A stretch of DNA of 64,000 nucleotides. Source: Porphyridium purpureum (taxonomy: Eukaryota). Of the stretch, positions 7,828 to 31,190 are shown one piece after another (the stretch's first letter is position 1; the number at the start of each line of letters is the position of its first letter). The stretch is taken from assembly GCA_008690995.1 (NCBI GenBank), contig VRMN01000008.1, positions 558,001 to 622,000 on the forward strand. Direction: 5' to 3'. The position numbers were made by a program, and so were the translations under genes. The notes beneath the pieces were generated by a model. That model did no database searches. It was given only the letters and a program-made list of their open reading frames with translations, and was not told the DNA's origin.

Positions 7828-8829
7828 TTAGTAGCGGTTGGTGGTGGGGCGGACGGAGCTGGCGGCGGCCGGGAAACGAGAGGTCAGTTTCTCCTCATAG
7901 TTGCAGCCATTGTTGTGCCAGTCGTTCGCGACCCTGCGCGCATTGAAGCGCGCCGCCGCCTTGGCGCCTGCCGACATCTGGCGTGCGCGGAAGTTGGCCG
8001 ACTCCTTGGCGACTCGGGCGTTCTCGGCCATTCCCTTGACCGTGCCGTCCGCGCACGAGGTCGTGTAGACGCCGTACGGAATCGAGCGCTTCTTCATCTG
8101 CATCTGCACTGACTTCTGAATGTACTCCTCGGCCTTGTTTGCCGGCTGCGCATAGCGGTCGCACGAAAGCAACGTCTCCTGCTTGCCCATCACGTACGCG
8201 GCGGCGGTCTTGTTGTACTGCTGGAAGATCTTCTCCTCATAGTTGCAGATGTGGCCCACCGCCTTCATCGCGTACTTTCGGCCCTCGTAGTAGTCAAACG
8301 ACATCTCGCGCGCCGAGCGCTGAGCCTGACGGAACTGCTTTGCCAGCGACGCGGTGCGCGCGTTCTCGGCCATGCCCTTGGACGCGCCCTCGCTGCACTG
8401 CGTGGTGTACACGCCCGAGCCCGCGGCCGACGCCTTGGCCTGCATGGCGATGGATCGCGCCATGAAGTCGTCTGCCTTGCGGCCGTAGAAGCCGAGGCGG
8501 AGCCCGGACGGATCCTTGCTCCTCTTCAGCGTGCCGAGGAACTTGAACGCCGGCGACCTGAAGGTGTTGCCCAAGTTGAGCGCGCGCGTCTCGTTGGTCG
8601 GCGGGTTGGGCTGCACCTGCCTCTTCATGGGCTTGGTGTTGAGCAGCTTGTCCCACTTGCTCGTGGACGTGTTTGTCTGGTACTTCCTGTACGAGTTCTT
8701 ATCCTGAATGATAATGCGCATGCTCACCGCCGCCTTTGCCGCTCCGCCCACGCGCGTCTGCTCCTTCCTCGGTGCCGCGCATCCCATAAACCCAGACGAA
8801 ACCTGGGCGCCCACCACAAACGCCGCCAT
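7828..8829 (-). CDS. Phycoerythrin gamma-type chromophorylated phycobilisome rod linker (LR-gamma), plastid-targeted
   Basis: MAAFV...VSM transit peptide; two internal repeats GVYTTQCSEG...CNYEEK and GVYTTSCADG...CNYEEK with conserved Cys (probable bilin attachment sites); strong G/C3 codon bias. Confidence 0.85.
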   Translation of the reverse strand: MAAFVVGAQVSSGFMGCAAPRKEQTRVGGAAKAAVSMRIIIQDKNSYRKYQTNTSTSKWDKLLNTKPMKRQVQPNPPTNETRALNLGNTFRSPAFKFLGTLKRSKDPSGLRLGFYGRKADDFMARSIAMQAKASAAGSGVYTTQCSEGASKGMAENARTASLAKQFRQAQRSAREMSFDYYEGRKYAMKAVGHICNYEEKIFQQYNKTAAAYVMGKQETLLSCDRYAQPANKAEEYIQKSVQMQMKKRSIPYGVYTTSCADGTVKGMAENARVAKESANFRARQMSAGAKAAARFNARRVANDWHNNGCNYEEKLTSRFPAAASSVRPTTNRY

Positions 8830-9273
8830 CTTGACTTGCACGCCGAAACTCCAACCTCAACCTCGTCCTCCGCGCTCTACCTCTTCCGTCACACCGCCAG
8901 CCCCCTAGTCTGTATCCTTTCTCTCTGTCCGACCGCCCTTTCTGTGTCACCTCTGTGACTCGCTCTCACACAAGGCGCCGTCAGAATATCATCGTGCAAA
9001 CCCGGGCGACGAATCTGCTCGCGGCGCGCCTCCCGCCACGCCCGCGAGACGCGCGCACGCGAGATGATATCAAAACCACTCCATTTTACCACAACGCATC
9101 CGCAACACCATCCGTTCAACTATCCCGACTCGAACGCCAGCTGCCGGCTTCTCCTGTCCGGCTTTTCGACGTTCCTTCGGGGTTTCCGGCTTTTCTTCTA
9201 TCATCCACACCCGCGCATGCACGCACGAATCTCGGGGGTACTGTGACACCCAAAACCCCCAGCCAACACCAAC

Positions 9274-9587
9274 CTTGGAGAGGTGCTCCAAGGGATCGGC
9301 CGAGAAAGATCGATGCTACGCCCGAAAGGGGTGCGGGTGCGCACGGCGAAACGTGCAACACGTGGGCCACTAATATGGCGGACTCTTCGAGGCGCGCAGA
9401 CGATTCTGCGCCGGCTCCCTATCGCTCCGAATAAACGACGAACCTTTACCTCACCACGCTAAAGAGTCTCTTACCTTCGCTAGTTATCCGGCCGGGACCC
9501 GGCCGCTCCACAGAACGTACTTATGCCGCACCGCCGGCCAAGTGAACACGGGAGTCCGCGGTTCAGCGGGACCTCATCGTTCCCACG
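9274..9587 (-). repeat. 3' LTR of the Copia element
   Basis: Direct repeat of 14523-14836 (offset 5249); no mismatch found by eye. Confidence 0.95.
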
Positions 9588-9597
9588 CGCCTCCTCA
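9588..9597 (-). other. Polypurine tract of the Copia element
   Basis: Minus strand TGAGGAGGCG abuts the 3' LTR and resembles the Drosophila copia PPT TGAGGGGGCG. Confidence 0.8.
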
Positions 9598-9632
9598 CGC
9601 GCAAATCGCCGGACTCCAATCTGTCTCGAGGT

Positions 9633-12600
9633 TCAGACGACGCACCAACCATGGCGTTGCTTTTGGAACGAGTCGACTGCGAGATTCTTCGTCAAACCGT
9701 CTGCAAGATTGTCTTTGCTGTTCACGTGCACGAAGTCTGCCAGGCCGTCCTTGGACACTTCGTTCAGCCATTTCAGGCTGATTTTCTGCATCTTGTGAAG
9801 ATGCAACATCTTGTCGCTCCATCCCTTGTTGATCGCGTTTAGCGCGGTCTCATTGTCGACATACATGGCCACCTTTGGCCATGCATTGTGCCATTCTTCG
9901 ATAAACACGCCCAGCGGAAAGACACGATACTGCACTGCTGTATGTGCAGCGATCAGTTCCGCCTCGGCGGTTGAGGTCGCGGTCCGGCGTTGCCGCCCAC
10001 TTGACCAGTCCACAAGGTGTCTCGTATTCTTACCAACAAAGAAAGTGCACACGCCGCTAGTCGACCTCTCTGCGCTGAAGTCTGCGTCAGTATAACAAGA
10101 TACAGACACAGGCAAGGCCCTGCCGGCACCCGAAAGAGGTGGCACGCGAAACACCAACACCGCATCGGCACTGCCCTGCAGGTACCGCATGATGTCGTTC
10201 AGGCCCTTTTCGGCTTCTTCACCCCAGCGATCCGTGCAGCGCGCTACCGTACCAACTGCGAATGCCAGATCTGGCCTGGTTGTCCGAACCAGCCACAAAA
10301 TACGCCCCAAGGTGCGTCTCACGCTCTTGTCACAGACCTCGCCATCTCTGTCGGGCTCAGGCTTACAAGACATCGGAGTCTTTCGCGCCTGCCTCTCTTG
10401 ACCGTCTGCTAGCATATGCCGTGCATACTCTCGTGAACTCATCACCCAGGCACCGTCCATGTCTTTGTCGACATAGAACCCGATGCCCAGGAACCGCACA
10501 GGGTTTTCTTTTGTCGCTTCGCGCATGTATTCAACCGCGCGGGTGATGGAGAACTCCTTTTTCATCTCCGCAACCGCCTCCCGTATTGCCCCACTGTCAC
10601 CGAAAACCGCCCCATCATCAACGTATAGGACTGTCCATTCCGTCTTACCCAGACGCTTTCTCCAGTATACGTTCTTATCTGAGGCGGATTCTTTCCAACC
10701 CAGACCTTCAAGTCTTGACCGTGCGTGAGCTCCAAAGTCGCTTCCGCTGCGTGGCAAGCCATACAGCGCCATGGGCAGCCTGACGACGGGCCTCTCCATG
10801 GCTTCGAGCTTTGACGACAGACTGGACGGTATGCAACCTCTCAACCAGCGAGTAAGACCGGCTAATTCGACGAATGTCGGAGGACCCCCGAGGGGCGCGT
10901 GTACGTATGCGTTGTCCACGTCGAAGAACGCAGCGTCAGCGTGTTCTCCGTGCTCCAACAGCGCTGCGCTTAATGCGGCCCTGATGGCTACTAAACCAGG
11001 CGGCTTCTCCCAATCAAATGGGTTCACAACCAGGGTTCCGGTTGCGTCTCTAACCACGCACCCTTGACACACAAGTCGGCACTTGTGTTTCCACGCGCTG
11101 GGCCCTAGTTCGGCATTTTTGATTCCGAACACGGCCTTCAGCTTCACAAACTGTGCGTGCGGCGTTCGCGTCGCCGTTCTGCGCTCGACCGCTTTCTCCA
11201 GCGGAAGCGCGCCGACGCTTCTCAACGCGGTCAACTCGCGGACAAAAGCATCGCGACCGGCACTCGAGGCCATGGCACTCTTGGATTCGATCACCTGCGT
11301 TACCAGCAGCTCTTGAACTAAGGCCGTCGCTCCGGCAAGAGGCACGCTGACCTTCTCTGCCCGCGCCGACACCCCTTTTTCCGCAACTTCTACGAACTTC
11401 ACCCTCGCGCGCCGCAAGGCCCCGCTCCTCCCGCGCCTGTGTTCGCCAAGACCTTGGGCTTGTGAGCCGAGCAATCCGAGCGCCTGCGCTTTCGAGCGCA
11501 CGTCTTTCGCTGTTTTACCAGCCAAGGCGGCCTTACTCTCTTTGATAATTTGCGACCACTTTGGACCCAGTCGTGTGAAGCCGCCCGAAATAGCCGCAAT
11601 TTGCTCGCTGCTCCACGAGCCCTTTCGCGATCGACCGTCTACTGTCGCGAGCGGCCCCGTCGGAGGCGCTTCTGTTCCGTTTGCACGTACGCATTCTTTG
11701 AAACCTGTTTCAATCTCATTACTTTTCTCTCTTGGGTCGGCCGGCGTCTCGGTTTCCGAGGTCTCGCCGGTCTCGTCGCTCTTATCATTCCTACCGCTTC
11801 CAGGGTACTGCTGCCCCTCGTCGTCAGCAACTGGTTTAGGGTCCGGCGGGCGGGCGAATTCTTCTTCAACGGGCCTGAGCTGTTTTCTTACGACGGGATA
11901 CTTTTCTTTGAGCAGTTTCCATTCTTGTACCCATCGCGCCGCTGCCGGCCTCATATCTGAAACAGGGATCACCAGGCAATTCAGTCGTTGTTTGATGACT
12001 GCTGATTCTGGTATCCGAAAACCGACCACGATTGCGACAGAGCCCTTCGGTTCATTCTTGTCGGAAGCCTCGTCGTAAACTACGACGCCCCGGCCAAACG
12101 CAGGCAGCTCCAATTTCCATTTAGTATTGAATCGTTTCTCGTACGCGGTGGCACCGCCTCCGCGCCCAGCCCAAACGAGATTTCGAGCATCCGCCCAATA
12201 CCGAGCCGCGAAGCAGAACCATGACGATGGCAACCCGGACTGGATCAGAAGCGCCCTCACCGTCGCATTCATGTCCCTGTGAAGCCTCTCTTGACTGGCA
12301 TGCGTGTTTGAACGCCTCGCTATGCCCTTTTCGTGGGCAACCAGGTGGTCTCGGAGCATGTCTTCGAAAACACCTCCAAATTCTCCGCCGCCATCGCTTT
12401 TCACCAGCCGAGGCCAACCGCGGCCCCGCTGTATCTCTCGAAACGCGAACGAGGCCGTGTCGGCGAGTTTATTCCTCAGGCCCGTCACAGAGACCCAGCC
12501 CGTTCCGATGTCTTTGTGTACCAGAACCCATCTCGTCCCATCCACACCAACCGAGGAGGGGTCCACGAGATCAATGGAGACGGCCTCATTAAAGCCGATG

Positions 12601-14225
12601 ATTGCATTGGAGTCACTCTCTTTGCGACGCACCGCGCGCACTCTCTGTATTTTGCCCAGGGCACAAATCCCACAATCTTCCTTCGCAGGCATATGCAAAA
12701 GGTCGTGGTCTAGAACCCTCACCGGCTCTGTGGCTCTAATTGGCTCATTGGGCTTCTCATTGATTTTCTCCGCATCCGTGCTGAGTAGTTCCATGCCTCC
12801 CACGGACAAATGCGCCTTCTGCGCCCTCAGCCAGTCCAGGCCCACTATGAGCTCGTGACGCGCTCTGTGTACCACCGCGGACAACTTTGCATCCCGAGCC
12901 CCATGCATTCTCAACGTCAGGCGCGCGGTCCCTTCGGGCCTGCACATGGTACCATCCGCCAAGCGAACTCCTCCCACGGCAGCGCGCCGGTCCACCGCCA
13001 CACCAATTTTCTCACAGAAAGCGAGCGAAGCATATGTGTTCGTCGCGCCTGTATCAAACACTGCGTCGACTTGGTGACCATTCACCCACATTTTTCTCTT
13101 CACAAGCCTCTCGACTTTTGGTCTGGTGCTCGCAGTGAGTAGTTCCAGCTCAGCCGCCTGTGCGGCGAGCTCCGGGCAATCCTTTTTCCAATGCCCTATG
13201 CGTTTGCAGTTGGCGCATTGATCCTTTTTCAGACCATCTCTCCTCCCGCTGTCCCGAGCCTTCCACTTCTTTCGACCACTCTTTCTTTTACCGCCGCTGC
13301 CAGCACCTACGCTTTTCCCGCCGCGCTCAGCGGAGCCCAGCTCCATGGGAGCCGGTCCGTCCCCGTAGGGCGTCTGCCCTTTCTTGGCAGTCCGGGCGCG
13401 TTCCGGGTGCATGATGGCATCGATCTCCGAAGCTACGCGGATAACTTCTTCCAAGCTGGATGTGCCCTTAAGTTCGGTTTGCACCCTAATGTCCTTGTCA
13501 AGCCCTCGCTTGTACTTGTCGAACAATTCAGACTCTGTGGCGTCTTCAATGCGCAGACAGAGCGAGGAGAAAGTATTTGTATACTCTTCCACGCTCGTGC
13601 CATTCTGCTCCAACGCGAACAGCTCATCTCTAGCCCGAGCGCCTGGGTTCACCGGGGCGAACCGCATCTCGAGCGCGGCTAGAAATGCTTCAACCGTGAA
13701 CGGCTGCTCCCTCAGGCGAATCCACCACAACTGCGCGTCATCCGTCAGGAACCCAGCGAGGTTTCGAACGACCCTCTTTTCGGCTGCGTCGTCCCAAGAT
13801 TCGCCAACCGCCGCGACTTCGTCCTTGTACGGCTCAACCACTCGGTCGCGAGCCGCCGAAATCCACGTCAGGATCTTTACTAGGTCTCTTTTCCCGTCAT
13901 ACGCCGGCATACGTGCAGGTTCAAGCAACTTTCGCCGCTGATGAACCACCTGCCCCGCGCCCGCGGACGCCAAAGCCGATCGCGCTGCTCTTTCGTGCGC
14001 CAAATCGCTCTCCAGACCCTCAATGCGCTGCTGTGCCATGCGTAAGTCGGCGGATAATTCCGCTCTCACCCTGGCCATCAACATGTCAAACTCGGTCGGC
14101 GATGGACCAGCCTGTGCATTGCCTTGCGTACCTCCACCCTGCTGCAGAGGTTGTGCTTCCAACGATTGCTGTCTCGCTGCCATAATTGCGCGCAGACGTG
14201 ACTGCTCCTGCTCACGGTCGTCCAT
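9633..14225 (-). CDS. Gag-PR-IN-(Myb/SANT-like)-RT-RNase H polyprotein
   Basis: CCHC knuckle CANCKRIGHWKKDC; protease FDTGA; HHCC HDLLH..CGIC; DDE (SIDL, KSDGGGEF, QER); Copia RT (KCRLVCQG, DVDNAY, LYGL, YVDD); RNase H (YTDADF, STAEAE, VDNE, NLADGLTK). Confidence 0.95.
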   Translation of the reverse strand: MDDREQEQSRLRAIMAARQQSLEAQPLQQGGGTQGNAQAGPSPTEFDMLMARVRAELSADLRMAQQRIEGLESDLAHERAARSALASAGAGQVVHQRRKLLEPARMPAYDGKRDLVKILTWISAARDRVVEPYKDEVAAVGESWDDAAEKRVVRNLAGFLTDDAQLWWIRLREQPFTVEAFLAALEMRFAPVNPGARARDELFALEQNGTSVEEYTNTFSSLCLRIEDATESELFDKYKRGLDKDIRVQTELKGTSSLEEVIRVASEIDAIMHPERARTAKKGQTPYGDGPAPMELGSAERGGKSVGAGSGGKRKSGRKKWKARDSGRRDGLKKDQCANCKRIGHWKKDCPELAAQAAELELLTASTRPKVERLVKRKMWVNGHQVDAVFDTGATNTYASLAFCEKIGVAVDRRAAVGGVRLADGTMCRPEGTARLTLRMHGARDAKLSAVVHRARHELIVGLDWLRAQKAHLSVGGMELLSTDAEKINEKPNEPIRATEPVRVLDHDLLHMPAKEDCGICALGKIQRVRAVRRKESDSNAIIGFNEAVSIDLVDPSSVGVDGTRWVLVHKDIGTGWVSVTGLRNKLADTASFAFREIQRGRGWPRLVKSDGGGEFGGVFEDMLRDHLVAHEKGIARRSNTHASQERLHRDMNATVRALLIQSGLPSSWFCFAARYWADARNLVWAGRGGGATAYEKRFNTKWKLELPAFGRGVVVYDEASDKNEPKGSVAIVVGFRIPESAVIKQRLNCLVIPVSDMRPAAARWVQEWKLLKEKYPVVRKQLRPVEEEFARPPDPKPVADDEGQQYPGSGRNDKSDETGETSETETPADPREKSNEIETGFKECVRANGTEAPPTGPLATVDGRSRKGSWSSEQIAAISGGFTRLGPKWSQIIKESKAALAGKTAKDVRSKAQALGLLGSQAQGLGEHRRGRSGALRRARVKFVEVAEKGVSARAEKVSVPLAGATALVQELLVTQVIESKSAMASSAGRDAFVRELTALRSVGALPLEKAVERRTATRTPHAQFVKLKAVFGIKNAELGPSAWKHKCRLVCQGCVVRDATGTLVVNPFDWEKPPGLVAIRAALSAALLEHGEHADAAFFDVDNAYVHAPLGGPPTFVELAGLTRWLRGCIPSSLSSKLEAMERPVVRLPMALYGLPRSGSDFGAHARSRLEGLGWKESASDKNVYWRKRLGKTEWTVLYVDDGAVFGDSGAIREAVAEMKKEFSITRAVEYMREATKENPVRFLGIGFYVDKDMDGAWVMSSREYARHMLADGQERQARKTPMSCKPEPDRDGEVCDKSVRRTLGRILWLVRTTRPDLAFAVGTVARCTDRWGEEAEKGLNDIMRYLQGSADAVLVFRVPPLSGAGRALPVSVSCYTDADFSAERSTSGVCTFFVGKNTRHLVDWSSGRQRRTATSTAEAELIAAHTAVQYRVFPLGVFIEEWHNAWPKVAMYVDNETALNAINKGWSDKMLHLHKMQKISLKWLNEVSKDGLADFVHVNSKDNLADGLTKNLAVDSFQKQRHGWCVV

Positions 14226-14522: not shown

Positions 14523-14836
14523 CTTGGAGAGGTGCTCCAAGGGATCGGCCGAGAAAGATCGATGCTACGCCCGAAAGGGGTGCGGGTGCGCACGGCGAAA
14601 CGTGCAACACGTGGGCCACTAATATGGCGGACTCTTCGAGGCGCGCAGACGATTCTGCGCCGGCTCCCTATCGCTCCGAATAAACGACGAACCTTTACCT
14701 CACCACGCTAAAGAGTCTCTTACCTTCGCTAGTTATCCGGCCGGGACCCGGCCGCTCCACAGAACGTACTTATGCCGCACCGCCGGCCAAGTGAACACGG
14801 GAGTCCGCGGTTCAGCGGGACCTCATCGTTCCCACG
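14523..14836 (-). repeat. 5' LTR of the Copia element
   Basis: Direct repeat of 9274-9587; followed on the minus strand by the PBS. Confidence 0.95.
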
Positions 14837-15832
14837 CCAACCACTGTACCTCGAGGACTGTACACTATAGTGCAACTGTACTTCTGGCGGTGGTCTAGGG
14901 TTTCCGTCCTGCCTTGATGTTTGAAACAGCGGCCGTGGGTTTTTAACGTTGCTTTTTAACGTTGATGTTTAATTTGATTTTTAACGTTGCGTGAGCGGGA
15001 TCTGGAGGAAGGGCGGAGCTGGGTGGAAGAGCGTGCGCGGTGGGATGGACGCGGTGACCACATGGGTAAATTAATGTCTCGAGCGCATCGAGCGCATGCA
15101 AAGTCGATGCACGCACGTGCAATGTCGACGTCTGGGTGCTTTCCCAAAGAGCCACGCATGAGATGGATTTGACGGGTTAGAAAACATGCATTGCATCTCC
15201 CACATTCTTTCGTCGCCACGCGTTTGCTTGCCGACCAGCAGCGCGCTGCAGACTCTTGGGGTGAAGCGCGTGGCCGTGTGCGTACAAGTGTCTATCGGCG
15301 CGGTACGCTGCTTCATATTGCCAGCGTTCAACCGAGCCGGCCGGGTAACCTGGGCCGTGACTCAATCGCAGTCCATGCGGAGCGTTACCACCAAACGAAG
15401 CTAGCCAACGGCGCATTCCAGAACTCGCTCGAGGACGGCTCGGCTCGGCTCAGCGCCAGCAACAAGATCTTGGCACCGAGCAGATGCACGCACCCATGCG
15501 ACGAGCGAGGAGCGGTCAAGAATGAGTCGTGCCGCCATGCGAGTTTTGTCGCCCGCTGCGCAAAGGCTCTTCGGCCGGCGCAAGTGCGCTTCACGCCACC
15601 ACTTATATAGTGCTGCGTGCGTGCGAGTTCTAAGAGTCTGCGCCAAGGCGCAGGCTTCCTAGACCGCCCATCGAAGAGCCACTCGAAAGAGTGAGTGTTG
15701 ACCTGATGGCGCAATATCGACTGCGACATACCAACGGGCTACTGGCGAGCGCAGGATGCACATGAAGACCAGCGGAATCGAATCTGGTGGGCAGGTGTGG
15801 GTGGGAACACCGAAAGCGAGGGGCGGGATATC

Positions 15833-16753
15833 ATGGCCGTGCGAAAGCGCACACGACCGGAAGGCGGCCGCGGCGAAACGCAGGCTGCGGGTACGCCGCA
15901 AGAGAATGCAGCGAAAACACAAGAGCAGCAGGCGCGTCGCGTAAAGGCGCGCCAAGCGGCGGCGTCTGAACGGCAGCGACAGACGATGCTGCAAGTGCTG
16001 AATGTGTGCATGGTCGCGGTATTTGCATACCTGGCAACCTTGTATGCGCGTGCGATTCGATCAAACGAAGCTGACCAGCCGCTAACCGTGCTGTACGAAG
16101 ACTTTCTCCCACCGGACGCGTTCCAACAGCTGCAGACTTGCCTCGCCAATAGCTCACTGTTGCATGGCGAGAACGTGCTCAACAAGCGCAACTTTAAAGG
16201 CACGTATGGATTTGCCGTCAAGTTCAACAACGACGGTGTGCAGCAGTTTAAAGACGATCCGGCCATGGCATGCCTGGTACCTTACTTTGAGCGCGCGGTT
16301 CGCAACGATACCAATGCGTGGGTCGTGAATGTACTGGTGTGCGAGGAAACACAAGCCGAGGTCAGTGTGGGCATTCATGTTGACAACACGGTCGGTATTC
16401 ATGTTCCCGTGCTGCGGTTTCTCGCTCATGTCGTGGACGTTTTGTACGTGAGCATACCTCGCGACATGCAGGGCGGGTCGTTGGTTATTTGGAATTATGG
16501 GTCTGGTCCGAGCATCGTTGCGCCTACCATAGATAGCGCTGACCGCGAAATTGTGCCCCGAGAGAACCACCGCGTGTCATTTCGCGGCGATGCTTTCCAT
16601 ACGGTGCGCGGCTTTCAAATTCCAGAGGACGTGCCTAAGCAAGACCGCTTGCGCATCTCGCTGGTCATTGAGCAATACAAGATCCCATCGCTCTTTTATC
16701 GACGCACAGACACGTACCGCTTTCAGTTCAAGACCAACATGACCATGGTATGA
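15833..16753 (+). CDS. Membrane-anchored 2OG-Fe(II) oxygenase (prolyl-4-hydroxylase-like fold)
   Basis: N-terminal hydrophobic anchor VLNVCMVAVFAYLATLY; HxD (GIHVDN), GGSL, distal His (DAFHTV), RxS (RISLV). Confidence 0.75.
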   Translation: MAVRKRTRPEGGRGETQAAGTPQENAAKTQEQQARRVKARQAAASERQRQTMLQVLNVCMVAVFAYLATLYARAIRSNEADQPLTVLYEDFLPPDAFQQLQTCLANSSLLHGENVLNKRNFKGTYGFAVKFNNDGVQQFKDDPAMACLVPYFERAVRNDTNAWVVNVLVCEETQAEVSVGIHVDNTVGIHVPVLRFLAHVVDVLYVSIPRDMQGGSLVIWNYGSGPSIVAPTIDSADREIVPRENHRVSFRGDAFHTVRGFQIPEDVPKQDRLRISLVIEQYKIPSLFYRRTDTYRFQFKTNMTMV

Positions 16754-24512: not shown

Positions 24513-24790
24513 TGCTGTGTACTACACCCGCAGCCACTACAACCCCTCTCTCACCTACAGGCACCCGCCCGGATCGAACCCCGACACCAACGGCACACCA
24601 ACCTCTCCTCGCACTTCGGTACCTCCTTTACTTTTCGTTTAGCTCGGGCCGCACGGCGGCGTGGATTATATACTGCCGCAAAGCCCTGGATCTAACTCAG
24701 TGGTGGGTTTGGATGGGGTTTTGGAGGGTGGACTGTACTATGGAGTACAGGTGCTACATGTGTACAGTGCATGGGGTGTACAGCATAGCA
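24513..24790 (-). repeat. 3' LTR of the Gypsy element
   Basis: Direct repeat of 30913-31190 (offset 6400); TATATAA on the minus strand at 24666-24672. Confidence 0.95.
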
Positions 24791-24803
24791 CATCTCCCCC
24801 ACC
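24791..24803 (-). other. Polypurine tract of the Gypsy element
   Basis: Minus strand GGTGGGGGAGATG abuts the 3' LTR. Confidence 0.8.
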
Positions 24804-25379
24804 GCCTCAACCGCTTGTGCGCGCTCGGGGACCGGGAAGAGAGGAAAGGGAGGCTGGCTAGCCCGGAGGAAAACCACGCGGGAAACCGGGCAAAGGGGTC
24901 GCGGAAAACGACCGCCGGCCAGCCCCAAACAAGCAAAAAATATTGTGAACGACGGAAAACCCATGCGACCCGGGTGTACGCGGCGGCGTCTTTGTACCTC
25001 TTTTCCGTGAGTTTTCGGTTTTCTGGTGCCGACTCCAGACGAGCACATTCCGGTGATCCAAGGTTCCGAGATAGAGGTGCAGGCTCAAGCAACACTCAAG
25101 AGGAGTTGATTGAAGCCTTTTCCCGCGAGGGAGGGCGCTTGCGGAAACCTCGGCGATATGCAACATTTGCCGACCCACCATGAACAGAAATTCCTGATTT
25201 GCGGCCAAACGACGCGGCGAAAGTGCGCGAAATGCAATATTGTAACCTAGATGAGGCCCACGAAGCCAGTCATCACCAAAGCAGAGCTTCTCTCGCCCTG
25301 GAACCTCCAGACACTCGTTGCTCATCCGTTGACACCGCCTGCCTCTCAACACCATATCCTCACTGTACCCACCCTGTGA

Positions 25380-25535
25380 GCCGATACGCCGATACGCCGA
25401 TACGCCGATACGCCGATACGGATAAACGGATAAACGGATAAACGGATAAACGGATAAACGGATAAACGGATAAACGGATAAACGGATAAACGGATAAACG
25501 GATAAACGGATAAACGGATAAACGGATAAACGGAT
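25380..25535 (+). repeat. Compound octamer array (GCCGATAC)x5 + (GGATAAAC)x14 in the Gypsy 3' UTR
   Basis: Directly counted tandem units. Confidence 0.95.
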
Positions 25536-25632
25536 GAGCCTCCGCCTTTCTCACAGTCGAAGGTCGGGAAGGATAGAGAGGCAGCGCGAAAGGAGGCCGA
25601 GGCTCTTGCCACACGCCGGCGGCCCGGACCGA

Positions 25633-28600
25633 CTATAGAAAGCTCTCGCCCGACGTGGATCGCAATGCAGTGCCGCGGTGCAAGCTGCCGCGGTTGAACG
25701 CCCACACAAGGGCCGGCGGCAGGGCAGAGGAACTTTCCCACGTCCAGTCCTTCTTCCTTGCCCCCTTCCAAGCCACAAGATACTCGGCCCCGTCGCTCCG
25801 TTCGCGCCTGGCTTTCAGACCTGACACCTCAACGATGTCACCGTCGGCGTTTCCCAGGCTGGTCGAGCGCAATGTATCGTTGCTCAGTAGCGCTCGGTCC
25901 ACTCTCTTCAGCCGTCGGCGATGCACGAAGAATTCTTTGCCGTCATGCGTCTTGAGCCATGCGCGATGCTCGTCAGCACGCTCAACTTCAAAAGGGCCTA
26001 CCCAAGGGTCCGCCAGCTTTCGGCCCTCCCTGCCCAGCGGCGGCTTCCAAACGAACACACAGTCCCCCGGTTCAACGTCAACAATTCGACATGACGCGTT
26101 AAGCTCTCGACGTCGGGCGTCCCGGGTGGCATCATTTTCAACTACTGCGTTGTGCAAGGCCTCGAGCCTGTTGCGCAACAGAATCACAAAGGCGTCCTCC
26201 TTTCTTGCGCTGTCTTGTGGCGCTACTTCCCCTTCGGCGGCCGGGTTGAAGGGTCCCAGCCATGAATTGGCCTCTCGTCCGAACATGAGCTCGTAAGGCG
26301 TCCTCTGCGTCGTGCTGTGTCTAGTCTGGTTGAACGCGGCCACACAGGCAGGCAACCACAAATCCCAATCGTCCTCCGTGACCCACGAAGAAAGCATGTC
26401 GCAGAGTGTCCTGTTAAAGCGTTCGACCGCCCCGTTGGCTTGTGGGTTGTACGCTGTCGTAAACAGCTTTCTAACGCGCAGCATCTTGCATAACTGGCGT
26501 AGAACATCGGCTCGGAAACAGGGCCCGTTGTCGCTCAGAAGAGCTTCCGGTAGGCCAAAGATTGCAGCCCAACGATCCAAAAAAGCCTCGGCAATGGTCT
26601 CTGCCCGCTCGTCTCGCACACATATTGCTATGGTGAACCGAGTGAAAAGGTCGCTCACTACCAGGATTTTTGAATATCCAGTGCTTGTTCTCGGCGTTAC
26701 CGTTAAAACGTCCGCAGCAACGACCTCGAACCGCCGGGTAACGACCCGCTTTCCCATGCGGTGGCTTGTGACAGGGGTCGGTGAGCCCTTTCGCGCGGCG
26801 CAAGTTCTACATTGCTTTACGAACTCCAAGACGTCTTGCAGCCAGCCAGGCCACCAAAACTCCGCGTCGGATATACGTGCCGCCGTCTTGGACACTCCGA
26901 AATGCCCGCTGAAAGGTGCTGAGTGGTAGACATCTAAAATACTGCCCACTAGTCCATCAGGGACTACCTTGCGCGGTTTGTCTTTCAGCGCGGCCCACGC
27001 AAGTCCACTTTCGTCCAGATAGTACTCCGGATAGGAATATACTCGTGGGGACTTTTGCAATGCCGCGAGCTCTTTCGATAGCAGCTCGTCCTCCCTGTAC
27101 GCTGCCTTGAGCCTCTCCGGAGATGGGAGCTCGTAGCCCACGGCTTGACCAATCGCGTGCGGATCATCTTCATCTGTCGGTACTGCAGAATCCTCTGCGA
27201 CGGGATCTCGTCGCGCACGCGTGCGCACTGCGTTCAGTTCGAGACGTGACAGTGCGTCCGGCACTCGATTCAAGCGGCCTTTAACATGCTCGATGGTAAA
27301 CGAAAAGTCCTGAATTGTCAGTGCCCAGCGCGCCAGCCTTCCTCTTGGCTCTTTCATGGACAGGAGCCAACGGAGAGGTTCATGGTCAGTGCGAATGCGT
27401 ACGGTTGTGCCGAAAACATAGTGTCGTACCTTTTTGAGACACCAAACTACTGCAAGGCACTCCAGCTCGGTGACCGTATAATTTTGCTCCGCCGACGTCA
27501 AAGTCCGCGACAAAAAAGAGATTGGCGCAAGCTTCCCGTCCGGCATCTCCTGATACAACGCACCGCCCAGTCCTATCTGAGAGGCGTCGGTGTCGAGAAC
27601 CTTTGGCGCGTTCGGATCCGCCAACACCAGCATCACTTTGTCCGACGTGAGCACCTCTTTGAATCCGTCGAAAGCGCAGCGCGCGTCTTCCCCAAAGCGT
27701 GCCTGCCAGCCGGCGCACTCTAGATCTGTATTGCGGTGTGCCTTCTTTGCATTGACGTCCAAGCCATCCAGCGCTCTCCGGAGCGGCGCCGCGCGATCCG
27801 AGAACCTGGGTATGAAGTCCCTGAACCAATTCACAAGCCCTAAGAAACGCAGCAGCTCTGTTGGGCCCTTAGGGTAAGGCCACTTGAGAATGGCTGCCGT
27901 ACTTTTTCCCCCCGGCCGAATGCGGCCTTCTTCCACTTCATGTCCCAGGAAACTGAGCCTTGCCGTAGCGAATTTGCACTTTTGCAGGGAAAATGTCATG
28001 TTCTCTTCCTGGAACTTGCTTAGCACTACGTCTAGGACCTCCAAATGTTTTTCTATCGTTTTGGTCCCTGTCAACATATCGTCTAGGTACATCAGGATGT
28101 GTTTCCATCGAAGCGACCCAAGTATCGTGTTCACAAGTCTCTGGAAGGTAGCGGGCGAGTTTCGGAGGCCCTGTGCAAGGACTGTGTAGCGGAACAGTCC
28201 CTCCGCCGTTATCATACCGGTGAAGTCCCGCGAGGACTCCGCGAGGGGAACTTGGAAGAAACCGTCAGCCAGGTCCATCACAGAGAAGACTCCACACGGG
28301 AGGAAGCGTCCCATCCAATCTAAGCATTCGCGCACGTCAGGGATTGGGTATCTATCTGGAACGGTGTGGCTGTTCAATTGGCGGAAATCCGTAGTCAGCC
28401 GCCACTTACCGTTTGGCTTTCGAATGATAACGTTCGCGCTGGCATATGGGCCCGAGCAAGGCTCGAGGATGCCCAAAGATAATAAACGCTGGACTAGCGT
28501 GCTCTCGGCCTCTCTTTCAACTTCAGACAATCTACGCAGGCGGGCCGGGGTAAGACGTGCGCCTGGATCAATAGCAATGGAGTGCTCAGTAGACCGTGTG

Positions 28601-29430
28601 CGACCTGGACGGTCCCGGAACACCCTCCAGTGCTTGAGCAACACCGCCCGAAGACCACTTTGGTGAAGCACGTCTACGTGGCTGAGGTCTACATCCATAA
28701 TGCGAGCACGCGTCTCCTCTTCGTCCTCTTGCATTACGTTTGGACTCCCGAGCTTACTTGCGTCTCTTTGCTCTACCCCAACGCAATCAATTAAGTTCAG
28801 TGATTTTGCAGGCGCTCCCTCTAAGAGGCGAATCGTGGCGCCGTCTTTCATTTCGAGCTCGCCCTTGCCAAAGGAAAGCGCGTTAGCATTAGCAACCCAG
28901 AAATCCCATCCCAGGATAAGATCTTCGATAAGATCTTCGGCAACTAATGCGCGCACCTGGTACATTGACTGGCCAATTTGTAGCTGAAGCTCTGATGCTC
29001 CGACAATACCGAGGGAGCTTCCGCCTGCAGTTCGACACTCCTGCGCCACGTCCTGTATTACGGCTCCTAGAGAACTGACCCACTTTGCTCGCGCATATAC
29101 ACCGGCAATCCCTACAGCACCCGTGTCGGCAAGAGCATCTACGGCAGATCCCGAGACCTTGACAGGCGTGCGACCCGATCGCATGACACGTGCTTTGGCC
29201 AACACGCGCACGTACGGGACTCTGCCAGAAGCAGATTCCACCAGATGGTTTAAGACTTCCAAGGTTGGACTCGCTCGCAGGATTCGCTTCGGCCCTAGAG
29301 CTAGATCATCAATCACGGAACTTGTTCGAATTTCGGTGTTCTCTTCACCTACGCTGGGCTTGCGATATCCCAACGCTTCCATGGCCTCATCCACGGCCCT
29401 CCCATTCCACGCTACCACGCGTCCGCGTAG
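25633..29430 (-). CDS. Gypsy Pol (PR-RT-RNase H-IN-chromodomain), in frame with gag behind a UGA
   Basis: LADTGA; DLADGFFQV; YLDD; DTDAS...ELECLAV; H..GH..C..C; SDNG; ERFNRTL; GPF; chromodomain EYLVAWKG..DWTWE (about 25693-25836). Confidence 0.93.
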   Translation of the reverse strand, partial: LRGRVVAWNGRAVDEAMEALGYRKPSVGEENTEIRTSSVIDDLALGPKRILRASPTLEVLNHLVESASGRVPYVRVLAKARVMRSGRTPVKVSGSAVDALADTGAVGIAGVYARAKWVSSLGAVIQDVAQECRTAGGSSLGIVGASELQLQIGQSMYQVRALVAEDLIEDLILGWDFWVANANALSFGKGELEMKDGATIRLLEGAPAKSLNLIDCVGVEQRDASKLGSPNVMQEDEEETRARIMDVDLSHVDVLHQSGLRAVLLKHWRVFRDRPGRTRSTEHSIAIDPGARLTPARLRRLSEVEREAESTLVQRLLSLGILEPCSGPYASANVIIRKPNGKWRLTTDFRQLNSHTVPDRYPIPDVRECLDWMGRFLPCGVFSVMDLADGFFQVPLAESSRDFTGMITAEGLFRYTVLAQGLRNSPATFQRLVNTILGSLRWKHILMYLDDMLTGTKTIEKHLEVLDVVLSKFQEENMTFSLQKCKFATARLSFLGHEVEEGRIRPGGKSTAAILKWPYPKGPTELLRFLGLVNWFRDFIPRFSDRAAPLRRALDGLDVNAKKAHRNTDLECAGWQARFGEDARCAFDGFKEVLTSDKVMLVLADPNAPKVLDTDASQIGLGGALYQEMPDGKLAPISFLSRTLTSAEQNYTVTELECLAVVWCLKKVRHYVFGTTVRIRTDHEPLRWLLSMKEPRGRLARWALTIQDFSFTIEHVKGRLNRVPDALSRLELNAVRTRARRDPVAEDSAVPTDEDDPHAIGQAVGYELPSPERLKAAYREDELLSKELAALQKSPRVYSYPEYYLDESGLAWAALKDKPRKVVPDGLVGSILDVYHSAPFSGHFGVSKTAARISDAEFWWPGWLQDVLEFVKQCRTCAARKGSPTPVTSHRMGKRVVTRRFEVVAADVLTVTPRTSTGYSKILVVSDLFTRFTIAICVRDERAETIAEAFLDRWAAIFGLPEALLSDNGPCFRADVLRQLCKMLRVRKLFTTAYNPQANGAVERFNRTLCDMLSSWVTEDDWDLWLPACVAAFNQTRHSTTQRTPYELMFGREANSWLGPFNPAAEGEVAPQDSARKEDAFVILLRNRLEALHNAVVENDATRDARRRELNASCRIVDVEPGDCVFVWKPPLGREGRKLADPWVGPFEVERADEHRAWLKTHDGKEFFVHRRRLKRVDRALLSNDTLRSTSLGNADGDIVEVSGLKARRERSDGAEYLVAWKGARKKDWTWESSSALPPALVWAFNRGSLHRGTALRSTSGESFL

Positions 29431-30642
29431 TCACTCGCTCGCAGGCGCCGCCGAGGTAGCTCTGCGCACCGGTGCTGGCGCCAGGCAGTCTCCGGCATAG
29501 TGTCCTGTCCCTTGGCAGCGGCGACACACCACTCGATCCGAGTTGGCCATTAAACGGTTCCCCCCGATTCCGGGCACGCCCAAAACGGCTGCCACCCGGT
29601 CCGCCAGGAACTCCACTTCGATCAACTTTTGATCCTCTGTCTCCTTCGCCGGGTCAGGAGGTACACCCCCAAGATTTGGTTCGGAATCATGAAGTACATT
29701 GACCGCAGCCCCCGGTGGACGGAAAACCGGTCTCCCTTGGGCAAAGCTTCGTCCCTTCTCCAGTGTCGACCCGTAGTTTTTCTCCAACGGTAAAATCATT
29801 CCGAAGAATGTTTCTGTGGCAGCGTGGAGACGACCCATCTGTTGAATATCTCGAGGAAGTCCTCGAACAAAGTCGCTCTTCATCGACGCCTCGGATTTCC
29901 CAAGAGCAGCGCCGAGCTCGTACACGGCGCGGTGATAGTTTGCCACTGACTCGCCCTTCGTCCATTTCCTCTCGCAGTACTCTTGTTCCACAGATTCCAA
30001 AAGCTGAGGAGACCAGAAAACCGAACGCGCCCACGCCCAACGCTGCTGAGCCGAGTACTCCGTCGCAAGCTCGCCGTTCTTCTCGGCAGTGCGATAAACC
30101 TGCTCAGCCGAATCCGCAAAAGCTAGAACCACAAACTTTGCCGTGAGGTCGGCTGGAATGTGGCGACATGCTTCCACCCAGGTCAAATACGTGGTTTCGA
30201 ACCTGAGATCACGCGCGTGACGGATGCGACAGTCTTTCATCTCGAGAATGACCGACCTCTTCATTTCTTGCTCGAGTTTGATGAGCCGGAGCTCCTCAGT
30301 GGACATTGTCAACAGGCTCGAACCATCAGAGACCGCCAGTGCAGTCCCGATTCTGGACGCGCGGCTGGGCTCCCCCGGTGGCTCGGCACCATGTTCGGCG
30401 GATCTTGGCCGAGAACCGCGATCCTGCGCGTCCGCAATCGTCGGTTCGTCCAGCTGCGGTCCGAGACGCTGAAAGATCATCTCCATTCTCTGACGTATCT
30501 GGTCAATGCTTTCGCGCAGCTGCTCCTGGCCGGATGCGATCAGCTCTACACGTCCCTGGAGTGCCGCCACATCAGCCGTGACGCTCGCTACAGTTGGACG
30601 CCCGGCCATTTCCCCCAAGATATCCGACAGGCGTCCGGACAT
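29431..30642 (-). CDS. Gypsy Gag
   Basis: 403 aa; N-terminal coiled coil, GESVANY...FVRGLP capsid-like motif, CCHC knuckle CRRCQGTGHYAGDC. Confidence 0.88.
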   Translation of the reverse strand: MSGRLSDILGEMAGRPTVASVTADVAALQGRVELIASGQEQLRESIDQIRQRMEMIFQRLGPQLDEPTIADAQDRGSRPRSAEHGAEPPGEPSRASRIGTALAVSDGSSLLTMSTEELRLIKLEQEMKRSVILEMKDCRIRHARDLRFETTYLTWVEACRHIPADLTAKFVVLAFADSAEQVYRTAEKNGELATEYSAQQRWAWARSVFWSPQLLESVEQEYCERKWTKGESVANYHRAVYELGAALGKSEASMKSDFVRGLPRDIQQMGRLHAATETFFGMILPLEKNYGSTLEKGRSFAQGRPVFRPPGAAVNVLHDSEPNLGGVPPDPAKETEDQKLIEVEFLADRVAAVLGVPGIGGNRLMANSDRVVCRRCQGTGHYAGDCLAPAPVRRATSAAPASE

Positions 30643-30912
30643 AAATCAGATAATCAGTCAGTCCCTAGAAATCAAACGCAAAAGTGTGCAATGCGTGTGC
30701 TGAAGCCACCCGGCTTCCCACACAAGTTCAAAAAACCAAACAGAACTATCTTTTCAAAGCCACCCGACTTCAAACGAGACACCAGAGCCACCCGACCTGG
30801 CACCTCTCCCCCACGTCGCCCTGGTTCCGGGCCACCCGACCACCAACCAGACCGGCCCGCGCGCTCCCACAAGAAATTACTCAAGAATGGGGCAACGCTA
30901 ATTCTAGAATTA

Positions 30913-31190
30913 TGCTGTGTACTACACCCGCAGCCACTACAACCCCTCTCTCACCTACAGGCACCCGCCCGGATCGAACCCCGACACCAACGGCACACCA
31001 ACCTCTCCTCGCACTTCGGTACCTCCTTTACTTTTCGTTTAGCTCGGGCCGCACGGCGGCGTGGATTATATACTGCCGCAAAGCCCTGGATCTAACTCAG
31101 TGGTGGGTTTGGATGGGGTTTTGGAGGGTGGACTGTACTATGGAGTACAGGTGCTACATGTGTACAGTGCATGGGGTGTACAGCATAGCA
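30913..31190 (-). repeat. 5' LTR of the Gypsy element
   Basis: Direct repeat of 24513-24790. Confidence 0.95.

Follow-up and report, generated by a model that had tools for sequence, protein, structure and literature searches.

To our knowledge, wherever the site choice of a long terminal repeat (LTR) retrotransposon or retrovirus is known, it runs through protein contacts, for example those of a chromodomain with a histone mark, Ty5 with Sir4, Ty1 with RNA polymerase III (Pol III), Tf1 with Sap1, human immunodeficiency virus (HIV) with LEDGF, and murine leukemia virus (MLV) with BET. The telomere-specific TRAS and SART elements have a Myb-like region. The chromodomain is described as guiding new insertions into heterochromatin (Gao et al., 2008, quoted from an excerpt of PMC12477314), and the sections of PMC12203849 on R2 describe zinc fingers and a Myb motif that bind DNA beside the insertion site in the ribosomal DNA (rDNA) target and set site specificity. 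The chromodomain and a DnaQ-like exonuclease are the accessory domains named as well known for LTR elements in the relevant portion of one review (PMC6338049). Here we describe a Ty1/Copia-type LTR retrotransposon of the alga Porphyridium purpureum whose polyprotein carries a Myb-type domain between integrase (IN) and reverse transcriptase (RT). The element lies in a 64,000-nucleotide stretch of contig VRMN01000008.1 (assembly GCA_008690995.1, positions 558,001 to 622,000), hereafter the window, to which all nucleotide positions refer. A full-text literature search, with subscription journals outside its coverage, turned up no account of an LTR-retrotransposon polyprotein that includes a Myb domain, and in two broad surveys, PMC6317226 and PMC2774666, the main text never uses the word 'Myb'.

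An earlier note, made from the sequence alone, had read this segment as a TRF-type Myb domain captured by a Copia polyprotein and embedded in linker between integrase and RT. The placement is borne out by the Pfam domain order of the polyprotein together with the integrase of its relatives. The peptide SRKGSWSSEQIAAISGGFTRLGPKWSQIIKESKAALAGKTAKDVRSKAQALG is the translation of window positions 11475-11630 on the minus strand, the plus strand giving an unrelated peptide, and constitutes residues 866-917 of an uninterrupted 1530-residue open reading frame (ORF; Table 1). The same note had pointed out that the first two tryptophans of the single-repeat Myb pattern match and that the third is absent; these are Trp 871 and Trp 890, 19 residues apart, and the third position is occupied by Ala 913. 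Alanine takes this place in all eight aligned blocks of the family, and because the aligned residue of Schizosaccharomyces pombe Tbf1 is also Ala, the substitution is a known variant of the fold. The second Trp is invariant in the eight blocks, and the first is replaced by Cys in P0008.

Profile and sequence searches assign the segment to the Myb superfamily. Across the whole window protein, PF00249 (Myb_DNA-binding) is found at residues 868-914 with an E-value of 0.036; on a 107-residue piece it is the sole DNA-binding family matched (E 9.4e-4, 19.7 bits). PF00249 recurs at the same place in the paralogs P0005 (16.8 bits), P0006 (24.3 bits, E 3.3e-5) and P0027 (23.0 bits), and it matches six of the eight aligned blocks at E<=0.1, the best at 7.9e-7. 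A phmmer search of a 111-residue piece against 1.84 billion representatives returned 13 matches at E<=1e-3, comprising five Porphyridium Copia pieces and eight apparent multi-repeat Myb proteins (E 3.9e-6 to 9e-4). Among PDB sequences, the single sequence has nine matches at E<=10, eight to Myb, TBF1 or Trf1 chains and one unrelated (best E 0.002), and the eight-block family profile has 31 matches at E<=1. Heading the profile matches are Saccharomyces cerevisiae TBF1 (E 1.4e-6), v-Myb (2.9e-4) and S. pombe Tbf1 (6e-4), the alignment to the last spanning all three helices. SHAQKYF-class Myb domains carry a SHAQK(Y/F)F motif in helix 3, and this class was considered on account of the helix-3 variants SKAQAL and SHAAAM; the SHAQKYF-family structure 6nvz matches the family profile weakly (E 0.067). 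In a protein atlas the three nearest clusters carry Myb families (scores 0.92, 0.90 and 0.90). The NCBIfam models gave no match to the Myb block at E<=10.

The three-helix Myb fold, proposed as a check in the earlier note, was recovered by structure prediction. Two AlphaFold runs, on alignments of 6 and 9 rows, yield the same three helices, at residues ~873-886, 890-896 and 906-916, with predicted local distance difference test scores (pLDDT) of 83-87 and 79-88 in the core, below 60 in the flanks and tail, and below 50 in the linker. The models match the structures of TRF1, Tbf1 and c-Myb. In an all-against-all fold search of 48,161 chains that does not rely on Foldseek, hTRF1 ranked first (Z 7.6, root-mean-square deviation [rmsd] 2.2, 51/52 residues aligned), followed by TRF1core (Z 7.3), TBF1 (7.1) and S. 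pombe Tbf1 (7.0). Foldseek against the PDB returned nearly all Myb, SANT and TRF entries, with c-Myb superposing at an rmsd of 1.6 over 49 columns (range 1.6-1.8). These models predict that the segment folds as a Tbf1/TRF1-like three-helix bundle in which helices 2 and 3 form the helix-turn-helix. No single number here is strong; the agreement of independent lines is, and the assignment of the segment as a Myb-type domain is solid.

The earlier note had also tied its reading to conservation of the segment among family members. The block is kept both in family members and in diverged subfamilies, and the adjacent linker is not. Proteins of P. purpureum, and of no other species, make up the nine or more 90%-identity clusters that contain it, namely P0004 (4 members), P0008 (2), P0023 (3), P0024 (2), P0027 (17) and P0050 (3), together with P0005, P0006 and P0007; by member counts the annotated relatives number ~34. 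Identities to the window protein were compared across the Myb domain (residues 863-914), the tail (915-945), the RT and the linker (801-862). P0005 is identical at 36/52 Myb residues (69%), 26/31 tail residues (84%), 211/315 RT residues (67%) and 7/34 linker residues (21%). In the same order, P0006 has 30/52 (58%), 22/31 (71%), 193/314 (61%) and 6/23 (26%); P0023 has 16/52 (31%), 15/31 (48%), 137/312 (44%) and 6/41 (15%); and P0024 has 17/52 (33%), 17/31 (55%), 141/312 (45%) and 4/42 (10%). P0027 keeps 19/52 Myb residues (37%), 106/294 RT residues (36%) and 8/44 linker residues (18%), and does not keep the tail. Conservation of the Myb block is therefore comparable to that of the enzyme domains, and it is the acidic linker preceding it that drifts. 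Closer copies behave similarly: five of the 15 differences between P0018 and the window protein fall at residues 827-856 and none at 863-945, an interval that also holds none of the 16 differences of P0019. A 1443-nt contig of run X15 carries four nucleotide differences, all at 11659-11735, which match four linker substitutions of P0018. Judged from these region identities and within-family differences, the sequences indicate that the Myb block is under purifying constraint at the protein level.

Columns that do not vary among the eight blocks include those of the second Trp, of an Arg in helix 3, of the Ala that stands for the third Trp, and of a Gly-Leu pair after helix 3. The tail, of the form GLLG..GL..HRRG, has invariant G, L and R columns and is 48-84% identical in P0005, P0006, P0023 and P0024, which retain the whole of it; its net charge is +3 to +6 in seven of eight members. 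Every block is strongly basic, with isoelectric points (pI) of 9.7-11.8 and a helix 3 of net charge +1 to +2, in which Arg is present in 8/8 members, Lys in 7/8, and a basic residue or His in 8/8. Ahead of helix 1, seven of the eight carry a basic N-terminal arm (GRSRKGSW in the window copy, whose arm and Myb domain together have a net charge of +7).

The slot between IN and RT is occupied differently among relatives of the element. We surveyed 33 RT-RNaseH relatives found at E<=1e-3, scanned 14 of them with Pfam, and scanned all collected proteins with the block profile. This profile finds the full block in P0023 and P0024 (E about 1e-25) and the Myb part alone in P0027 (1.2e-7). In the Logan-derived P0020 (~residues 320-375), P0025 and the Porphyridium protein P0022 (~950-995), the slot holds a conserved Cys-rich module with the pattern CxxC-x8-10-CxxC-x9-H-x5-C-x4-CxC-PR. 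Beyond chance-level matches, no Pfam family corresponds to this module at E<=10, and it may represent a novel accessory module that binds zinc. In P0022 the Cys-rich module is followed by a weak Myb-like stretch (E 0.018-0.055; block profile E 0.59), and in P0021 and P0029 the slot shows only weak coiled-coil-like matches. On a quick RT-RNaseH tree, elements with the Myb domain, with the Cys-rich module or with both share a single clade (Shimodaira-Hasegawa-like approximate likelihood ratio test [SH-aLRT] 99), and P0027 groups with P0021 and P0029 in a separate clade with a support of 100. Another small DNA-binding module was seen in a distant Copia-type polyprotein, P0045 (Symbiodinium sp., 1491 aa), which has a SAP motif (PF02037) at residues 1408-1439 near its C-terminus (E 1e-6, 28.6 bits, above the cut-off of 23.9).

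Compared with the systems described above, the Porphyridium domain resembles Tbf1 and TRF1 (PDB 8x6d, 8ynu and 1w0t) in being a single repeat with a basic arm before helix 1 and a longer loop between helices 2 and 3. It differs in being part of a retrotransposon polyprotein rather than a cellular telomere or promoter factor, in lacking the LKDK.RN signature, and in possessing its own GLLG..GL..HRRG tail; no TRFH-like dimerization domain is evident. The domain is a member of the Myb/SANT superfamily, nearest to the Tbf1/TRF1 type but without the helix-3 signature of these proteins. With the Ty5 targeting domain that meets Sir4, and with Ty1 integrase and its partner AC40, the element shares the superfamily, the region of the polyprotein (the integrase C-terminal tail upstream of RT), and the biased integration that we propose here. 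The Ty5 and Ty1 motifs are short linear peptides that bind host proteins, whereas the Porphyridium module, ~50 residues long, is predicted to be a folded domain and bears a DNA-binding signature. Like the chromodomain of chromoviruses, it is a small accessory chromatin- or DNA-recognition module placed after the integrase of an LTR retrotransposon. The chromoviral module, however, has a chromo fold and belongs to Ty3/gypsy elements in which integrase comes last in Pol, while the present one has a Myb fold and sits between IN and RT of a Ty1/Copia element; a chromodomain reads histone marks, and the Myb module is predicted to read DNA. Pfam showed no Chromo domain in the Myb-bearing polyprotein at E<=1. 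The Porphyridium clade, with Myb, Cys-rich or both modules in one slot, further recalls the zinc-finger and Myb N-terminal domain of R2 as the R2 sections of PMC12203849 describe it. R2, a non-LTR element, relies on target-primed reverse transcription and a restriction-like endonuclease, in contrast to the DDE-type integrase and double-stranded complementary DNA (cDNA) of the Porphyridium element. By analogy, then, the system may be likened to chromodomains, to Ty5/Ty1 tethering peptides and to R2 Myb recognition, yet it is a member of none of them.

Given the basic charge of the block, the DNA-bound state of its nearest Myb relatives and the conserved basic residues of helix 3, we infer that the domain binds double-stranded DNA. 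On analogy with the systems above, the reading that we favor, and to which we assign about an even chance, is that the Myb domain acts as a DNA-binding tether that biases where the integrase-cDNA complex inserts. DNA contacts would be made by the arm GRSRKGSW and by helix 3, in the manner of TRF1 and Tbf1, and the RRG-rich basic tail could add non-specific or minor-groove contacts or act as a nuclear localization signal. The domain lies ~60 residues after the integrase-like region and ~30 before RT, and would probably stay on the integrase C-terminus after protease cleavage. Its binding would recruit the integrase-cDNA complex to specific places in the DNA, with integration following tens of base pairs from the bound motif. 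A more specific version treats the polyprotein as a natural fusion of integrase to a sequence-reading DNA-binding domain, with interchangeable modules in the slot (Tbf1-like Myb, Cys-rich, or both), the Myb domain reading a short promoter-type motif such as AAACCCTA and new copies landing within a few tens of base pairs of it, in the intergenic promoter DNA of a compact genome. We consider this version rather doubtful. Myb domains of the telobox subclass bind double-stranded repeats of the TTAGGG or AAACCCTA type. The telobox-like 8-mer AAACCCTA, which lies close outside the 5' LTR (Table 1), occurs once in the window, counting both strands, where 0.41 are expected and 37 of 100 shuffles contain at least one. 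Its proximity to the insertion amounts to a hypothesis and not to evidence of specificity, because it concerns one site.

Several results count against the identification and the role proposed. The canonical helix-3 consensus of telobox-binding domains is of the LKDKWRN or LKDKARN type, and this TRF/Tbf1 signature is absent, VRSKAQAL standing opposite LKDKARNM in the HMMER alignment. At the level of the family profile, lRskAqalGL agrees with LKDKARNMKL at the Ala and hydrophobic positions and not in the K-D-K pattern, and the individual blocks vary further (SKAQAL, LHAQAI, SHAAAM, SHASAI and ARAHNM). The TRF-type label of the earlier note gains some support: TBF1 and TRF1 are the best profile and fold matches and the Ala is that of S. 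pombe Tbf1, but the helix-3 telobox signature is not there. The window copy scores 19.7-20.4 bits with PF00249, below the Pfam gathering cut-off of 24.4, and two of eight members have no PF00249 match at E<=0.1. No chain reaches Z>=8 in the fold search, Z of 7-8 being the typical best for models without a clear Foldseek match and a frequent result with small models, and the Foldseek E-values are weak (best 0.073, none at E<=0.001). The basic tail is predicted without confident structure (pLDDT 47-58). On the RT-RNaseH tree, a quick tree only, the Myb label needs two changes. As to function, the Myb domain could belong to the mature RT or be released free. The AAACCCTA lead comes from n=1 insertion site and was spotted by eye before counting, after the Tbf1/TRF1 matches had prompted a look for telomere motifs. 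The telomere repeat type of P. purpureum is left unsettled in the part of PMC3622300 that concerns it, and we therefore draw no link to telomeric DNA.

Other roles for a conserved basic Myb fold must be set beside tethering to target DNA. The domain might bind the element's own DNA, at the LTR ends of the cDNA or at the LTR promoter, and thereby serve intasome assembly or self-regulation rather than target choice, much as helix-turn-helix or Myb-like portions of DDE transposase systems bind the ends of their transposons. The basic character and conservation fit any DNA-binding role, the bipartite DNA-binding domain of Tc3 transposase is among the fold matches (Z 5.2, rank 30), and in PIF/Harbinger elements a separate Myb-like protein binds the transposon ends. 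Canonical retroviral-type integrases, however, recognize LTR ends without such a domain, and sister lineages replace the Myb domain with the Cys-rich module or a coiled-coil-like stretch, a pattern that suits an accessory role better than a core one. AAACCCTA is also absent from the LTRs, though the true binding motif may differ, and on balance we find binding to the element's own DNA unlikely. A SANT-like protein-interaction module contacting histone tails or a chromatin protein would tether by protein contact instead, in the way of chromodomains or of Ty5 with Sir4. The fold by itself cannot separate Myb from SANT, and SANT domains of MTA1, CoREST, NCoR and RSC8 occur among the fold and profile matches (Z 4.6-5.8; E 0.0021 for RSC8). 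Yet histone-binding SANT domains tend toward acidic surfaces, whereas the blocks carry a basic arm in 7/8 members and a net-positive helix 3, and their best profile and fold matches are DNA-bound telomeric Myb domains. Because all eight blocks are strongly basic, histone binding is less likely than DNA binding, and tethering through a SANT-type contact seems to us improbable.

The block might alternatively serve another step of the life cycle, such as nuclear import, nucleic-acid chaperoning or RNA binding, or assist RT as an N-terminal accessory, leaving site choice unaffected. Its tail HRRGRSGALRRARVK abounds in Arg and Lys and equals or exceeds the Myb core in conservation, the block is separated from the RT-conserved region by only ~30 residues, and the Ty1 integrase C-terminus carries a nuclear localization signal. 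A nuclear localization signal, though, needs no folded three-helix domain, and here the core residues are invariant across subfamilies, while P0027 keeps the Myb domain without the tail; we give such a role a small probability. By far the least credible account is chance resemblance, in which a helical piece of linker with two tryptophans has no domain function. Single-sequence scores below curated thresholds and Foldseek E-values above 0.07 would suit it. Independent lines nevertheless converge on a Myb domain (Pfam matches at one and the same place in several subfamilies, the TBF1 profile match with its E-value of 1.4e-6, both AlphaFold models, the two fold searches and the atlas), and conservation at the level of RT beside a linker only 10-26% identical is hard to square with a stretch that does nothing. 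The earlier note had also suggested that the module was captured. Outside the element, its nearest matches come from metagenomes and, in one case, from a lichen fungus, but not from Porphyridium, and because no donor gene was found, capture is unproven.

The element that carries the domain is a structurally intact, young Ty1/Copia-type LTR retrotransposon. It has the hallmarks of the superfamily in its LTRs and 5-bp target duplication and in the order PR-IN-RT-RNaseH, where PR is the protease, with an RVT_2-type RT. A purine-rich tract (reverse complement of 9588-9600) adjoins the 3' LTR, and the LTR edges coincide with the positions at which RNA reads show loose ends (9274, 14523 and 14837). 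Pfam locates Retrotrans_gag at residues 159-243 of the polyprotein, zf-CCHC at 336-352, an aspartyl protease at 379-467 and RVT_2 at 1137-1229. In the window copy the RVT_2 match, at 19.1 bits, falls short of the cut-off of 31.6, which is exceeded in the aligned relatives P0006 (32.1 bits), P0027 (61.6) and P0029 (68.1). RNase_H gives a weak match (E 0.0084) in the aligned region of P0005, where 160/236 residues are identical to the window protein. The integrase core was not detected directly in the window protein, for which the best match was rva_4 at E 0.12 and the PDB matches were irrelevant. P0006 matches the IS481 DDE transposase model (E 4.7e-7), and P0025 and P0027 match PF00665 (rve) weakly. 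The integrase assignment is made because the integrase-like region is identical to P0006 at 116/178 residues (65%) and because of these weak rve matches of relatives. NCBI protein KAA8496418.1 (Porphyridium purpureum) differs from the window polyprotein at one residue, and the 90% cluster of the window protein consists of four near-identical annotated members, among which P0004 has 1 difference, P0018 15 and P0019 16. A 28-nt LTR end had no exact match in the metagenome contigs scanned.

Table 1. Positions of the element, its coding regions and the nearby 8-mer in the window (residue numbers refer to the polyprotein).
Feature	Position	Strand	Remarks
Polyprotein ORF, Gag-PR-IN-[Myb]-RT-RNaseH	9633..14225	-	1530 aa, stop-free
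5' LTR (element orientation)	14523..14836	-	314 bp, 100% identical to 3' LTR
3' LTR	9274..9587	-	314 bp; direct-repeat match, edges refined by reading sequence
Target-site duplication CCAAC, left	9269..9273	.	sequence inspection
Target-site duplication CCAAC, right	14837..14841	.	sequence inspection
Integrase-like region, divergent, residues ~520-800	11826..12668	-	homology via relatives
Variable acidic linker, residues 801-862	11640..11825	-	low identity across subfamilies
Basic N-terminal arm and predicted three-helix Myb domain, residues 863-916	11478..11639	-	PF00249, TBF1 profile match, AlphaFold
Conserved basic tail GLLG..AQGLGEHRRGRSGALRRARVK, residues 917-945	11391..11477	-	alignment conservation
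Reverse transcriptase, residues ~976-1290	10356..11300	-	RVT_2
RNase H region, residues ~1291-1530	9636..10355	-	alignment to P0005
AAACCCTA, telobox-like 8-mer	14896..14903	-	55 bp outside 5' LTR; lead only

The insertion occupies a spacer of ~1.4 kb between two divergent ORFs, 7828-8841 on the minus strand (337 aa) and 15797-16753 on the plus strand (318 aa), neither of which matches a Pfam family at E<=0.01. Two kinds of target were considered and rejected. Telomere targeting of this interstitial copy was set aside on finding CCCTAA six times in the window against 10.3 expected, with none near the insertion outside the element; tRNA-gene targeting was set aside on finding no tRNA genes in the 64 kb. 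Some RNA reads (three in run X22, four of five in run X23) join the right flank, 14837-14849, directly to sequence ending in CCCCAGCCAACA. These element-less junction reads resemble the left flank at 9256-9268 but differ at 14837, 14838 and 14841, and they may come from a diverged unoccupied allele, the insertion then being polymorphic, or from a paralogous site in that strain. The reconstructed empty site, CAGCCAACA-CCAAC-CACTG, is a single site whose target holds a short CCAAC(A)CCAACC repeat. Three occurrences of TTTTTAACGTTG cluster in ~55 bp of the intergenic spacer (14937-14990), at a distance of ~100-150 bp from the 5' LTR. The window also contains a second intact-looking LTR retrotransposon, chromovirus-like, at 24513-31190 on the minus strand, with 278-nt LTRs (24513-24790 and 30913-31190) that are 100% identical. 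It encodes a gag-like ORF of 403 aa (29431-30642) and a Pol of 1261 aa (25633-29418) in the Ty3/gypsy order PR-RT-RNaseH-IN, ending in a weak chromodomain match (PF00385, E 6.1e-5, 23.3 bits, below the cut-off of 25.1). Accessory modules of chromodomain type and of Myb type thus lie within one 64-kb window.

Transcription was assessed in two 2026 RNA-seq runs, whose species label is shared with a DNA run that holds 96% of the words of the stretch. Of the 643 reads that map to the stretch in run X23, 553 have >=99% identity; the reads cover 30/30 bins, with a depth of about 5 over the Myb bin. Most of these reads have the first mate on the plus strand, which in usual stranded libraries implies minus-strand RNA, and the RNA is therefore sense to the minus-strand element. 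Sense-strand RNA thus covers the element family, the reads being attributable to the family and not to a single copy. Sense depth in X23 is 25-43x over 9494-10675, the 3' 1.2 kb, and 4-16x over 10873-14221, a three- to ten-fold difference to which 3' bias, a shorter transcript or contributions of truncated copies are possible sources.

Should the Myb domain prove to be a DNA-binding tether, a Copia element would encode the module that reads its target DNA, a solution shared with the non-LTR element R2 and unlike the protein-contact routes by which other LTR elements and retroviruses choose their sites. It would then offer a natural model of an integrase fused to a DNA-binding domain, a design attempted by engineering, and if slot modules do read short motifs it would be an integrase-based counterpart of the zinc-finger and Myb targeting of R2. 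Swaps between Myb and Cys-rich modules within one clade would provide a ready comparative test of whether the module determines targeting. For Porphyridium itself, such a tether would show how a mobile element stays active in a gene-dense algal genome of the 20-Mb class while sparing coding sequence.

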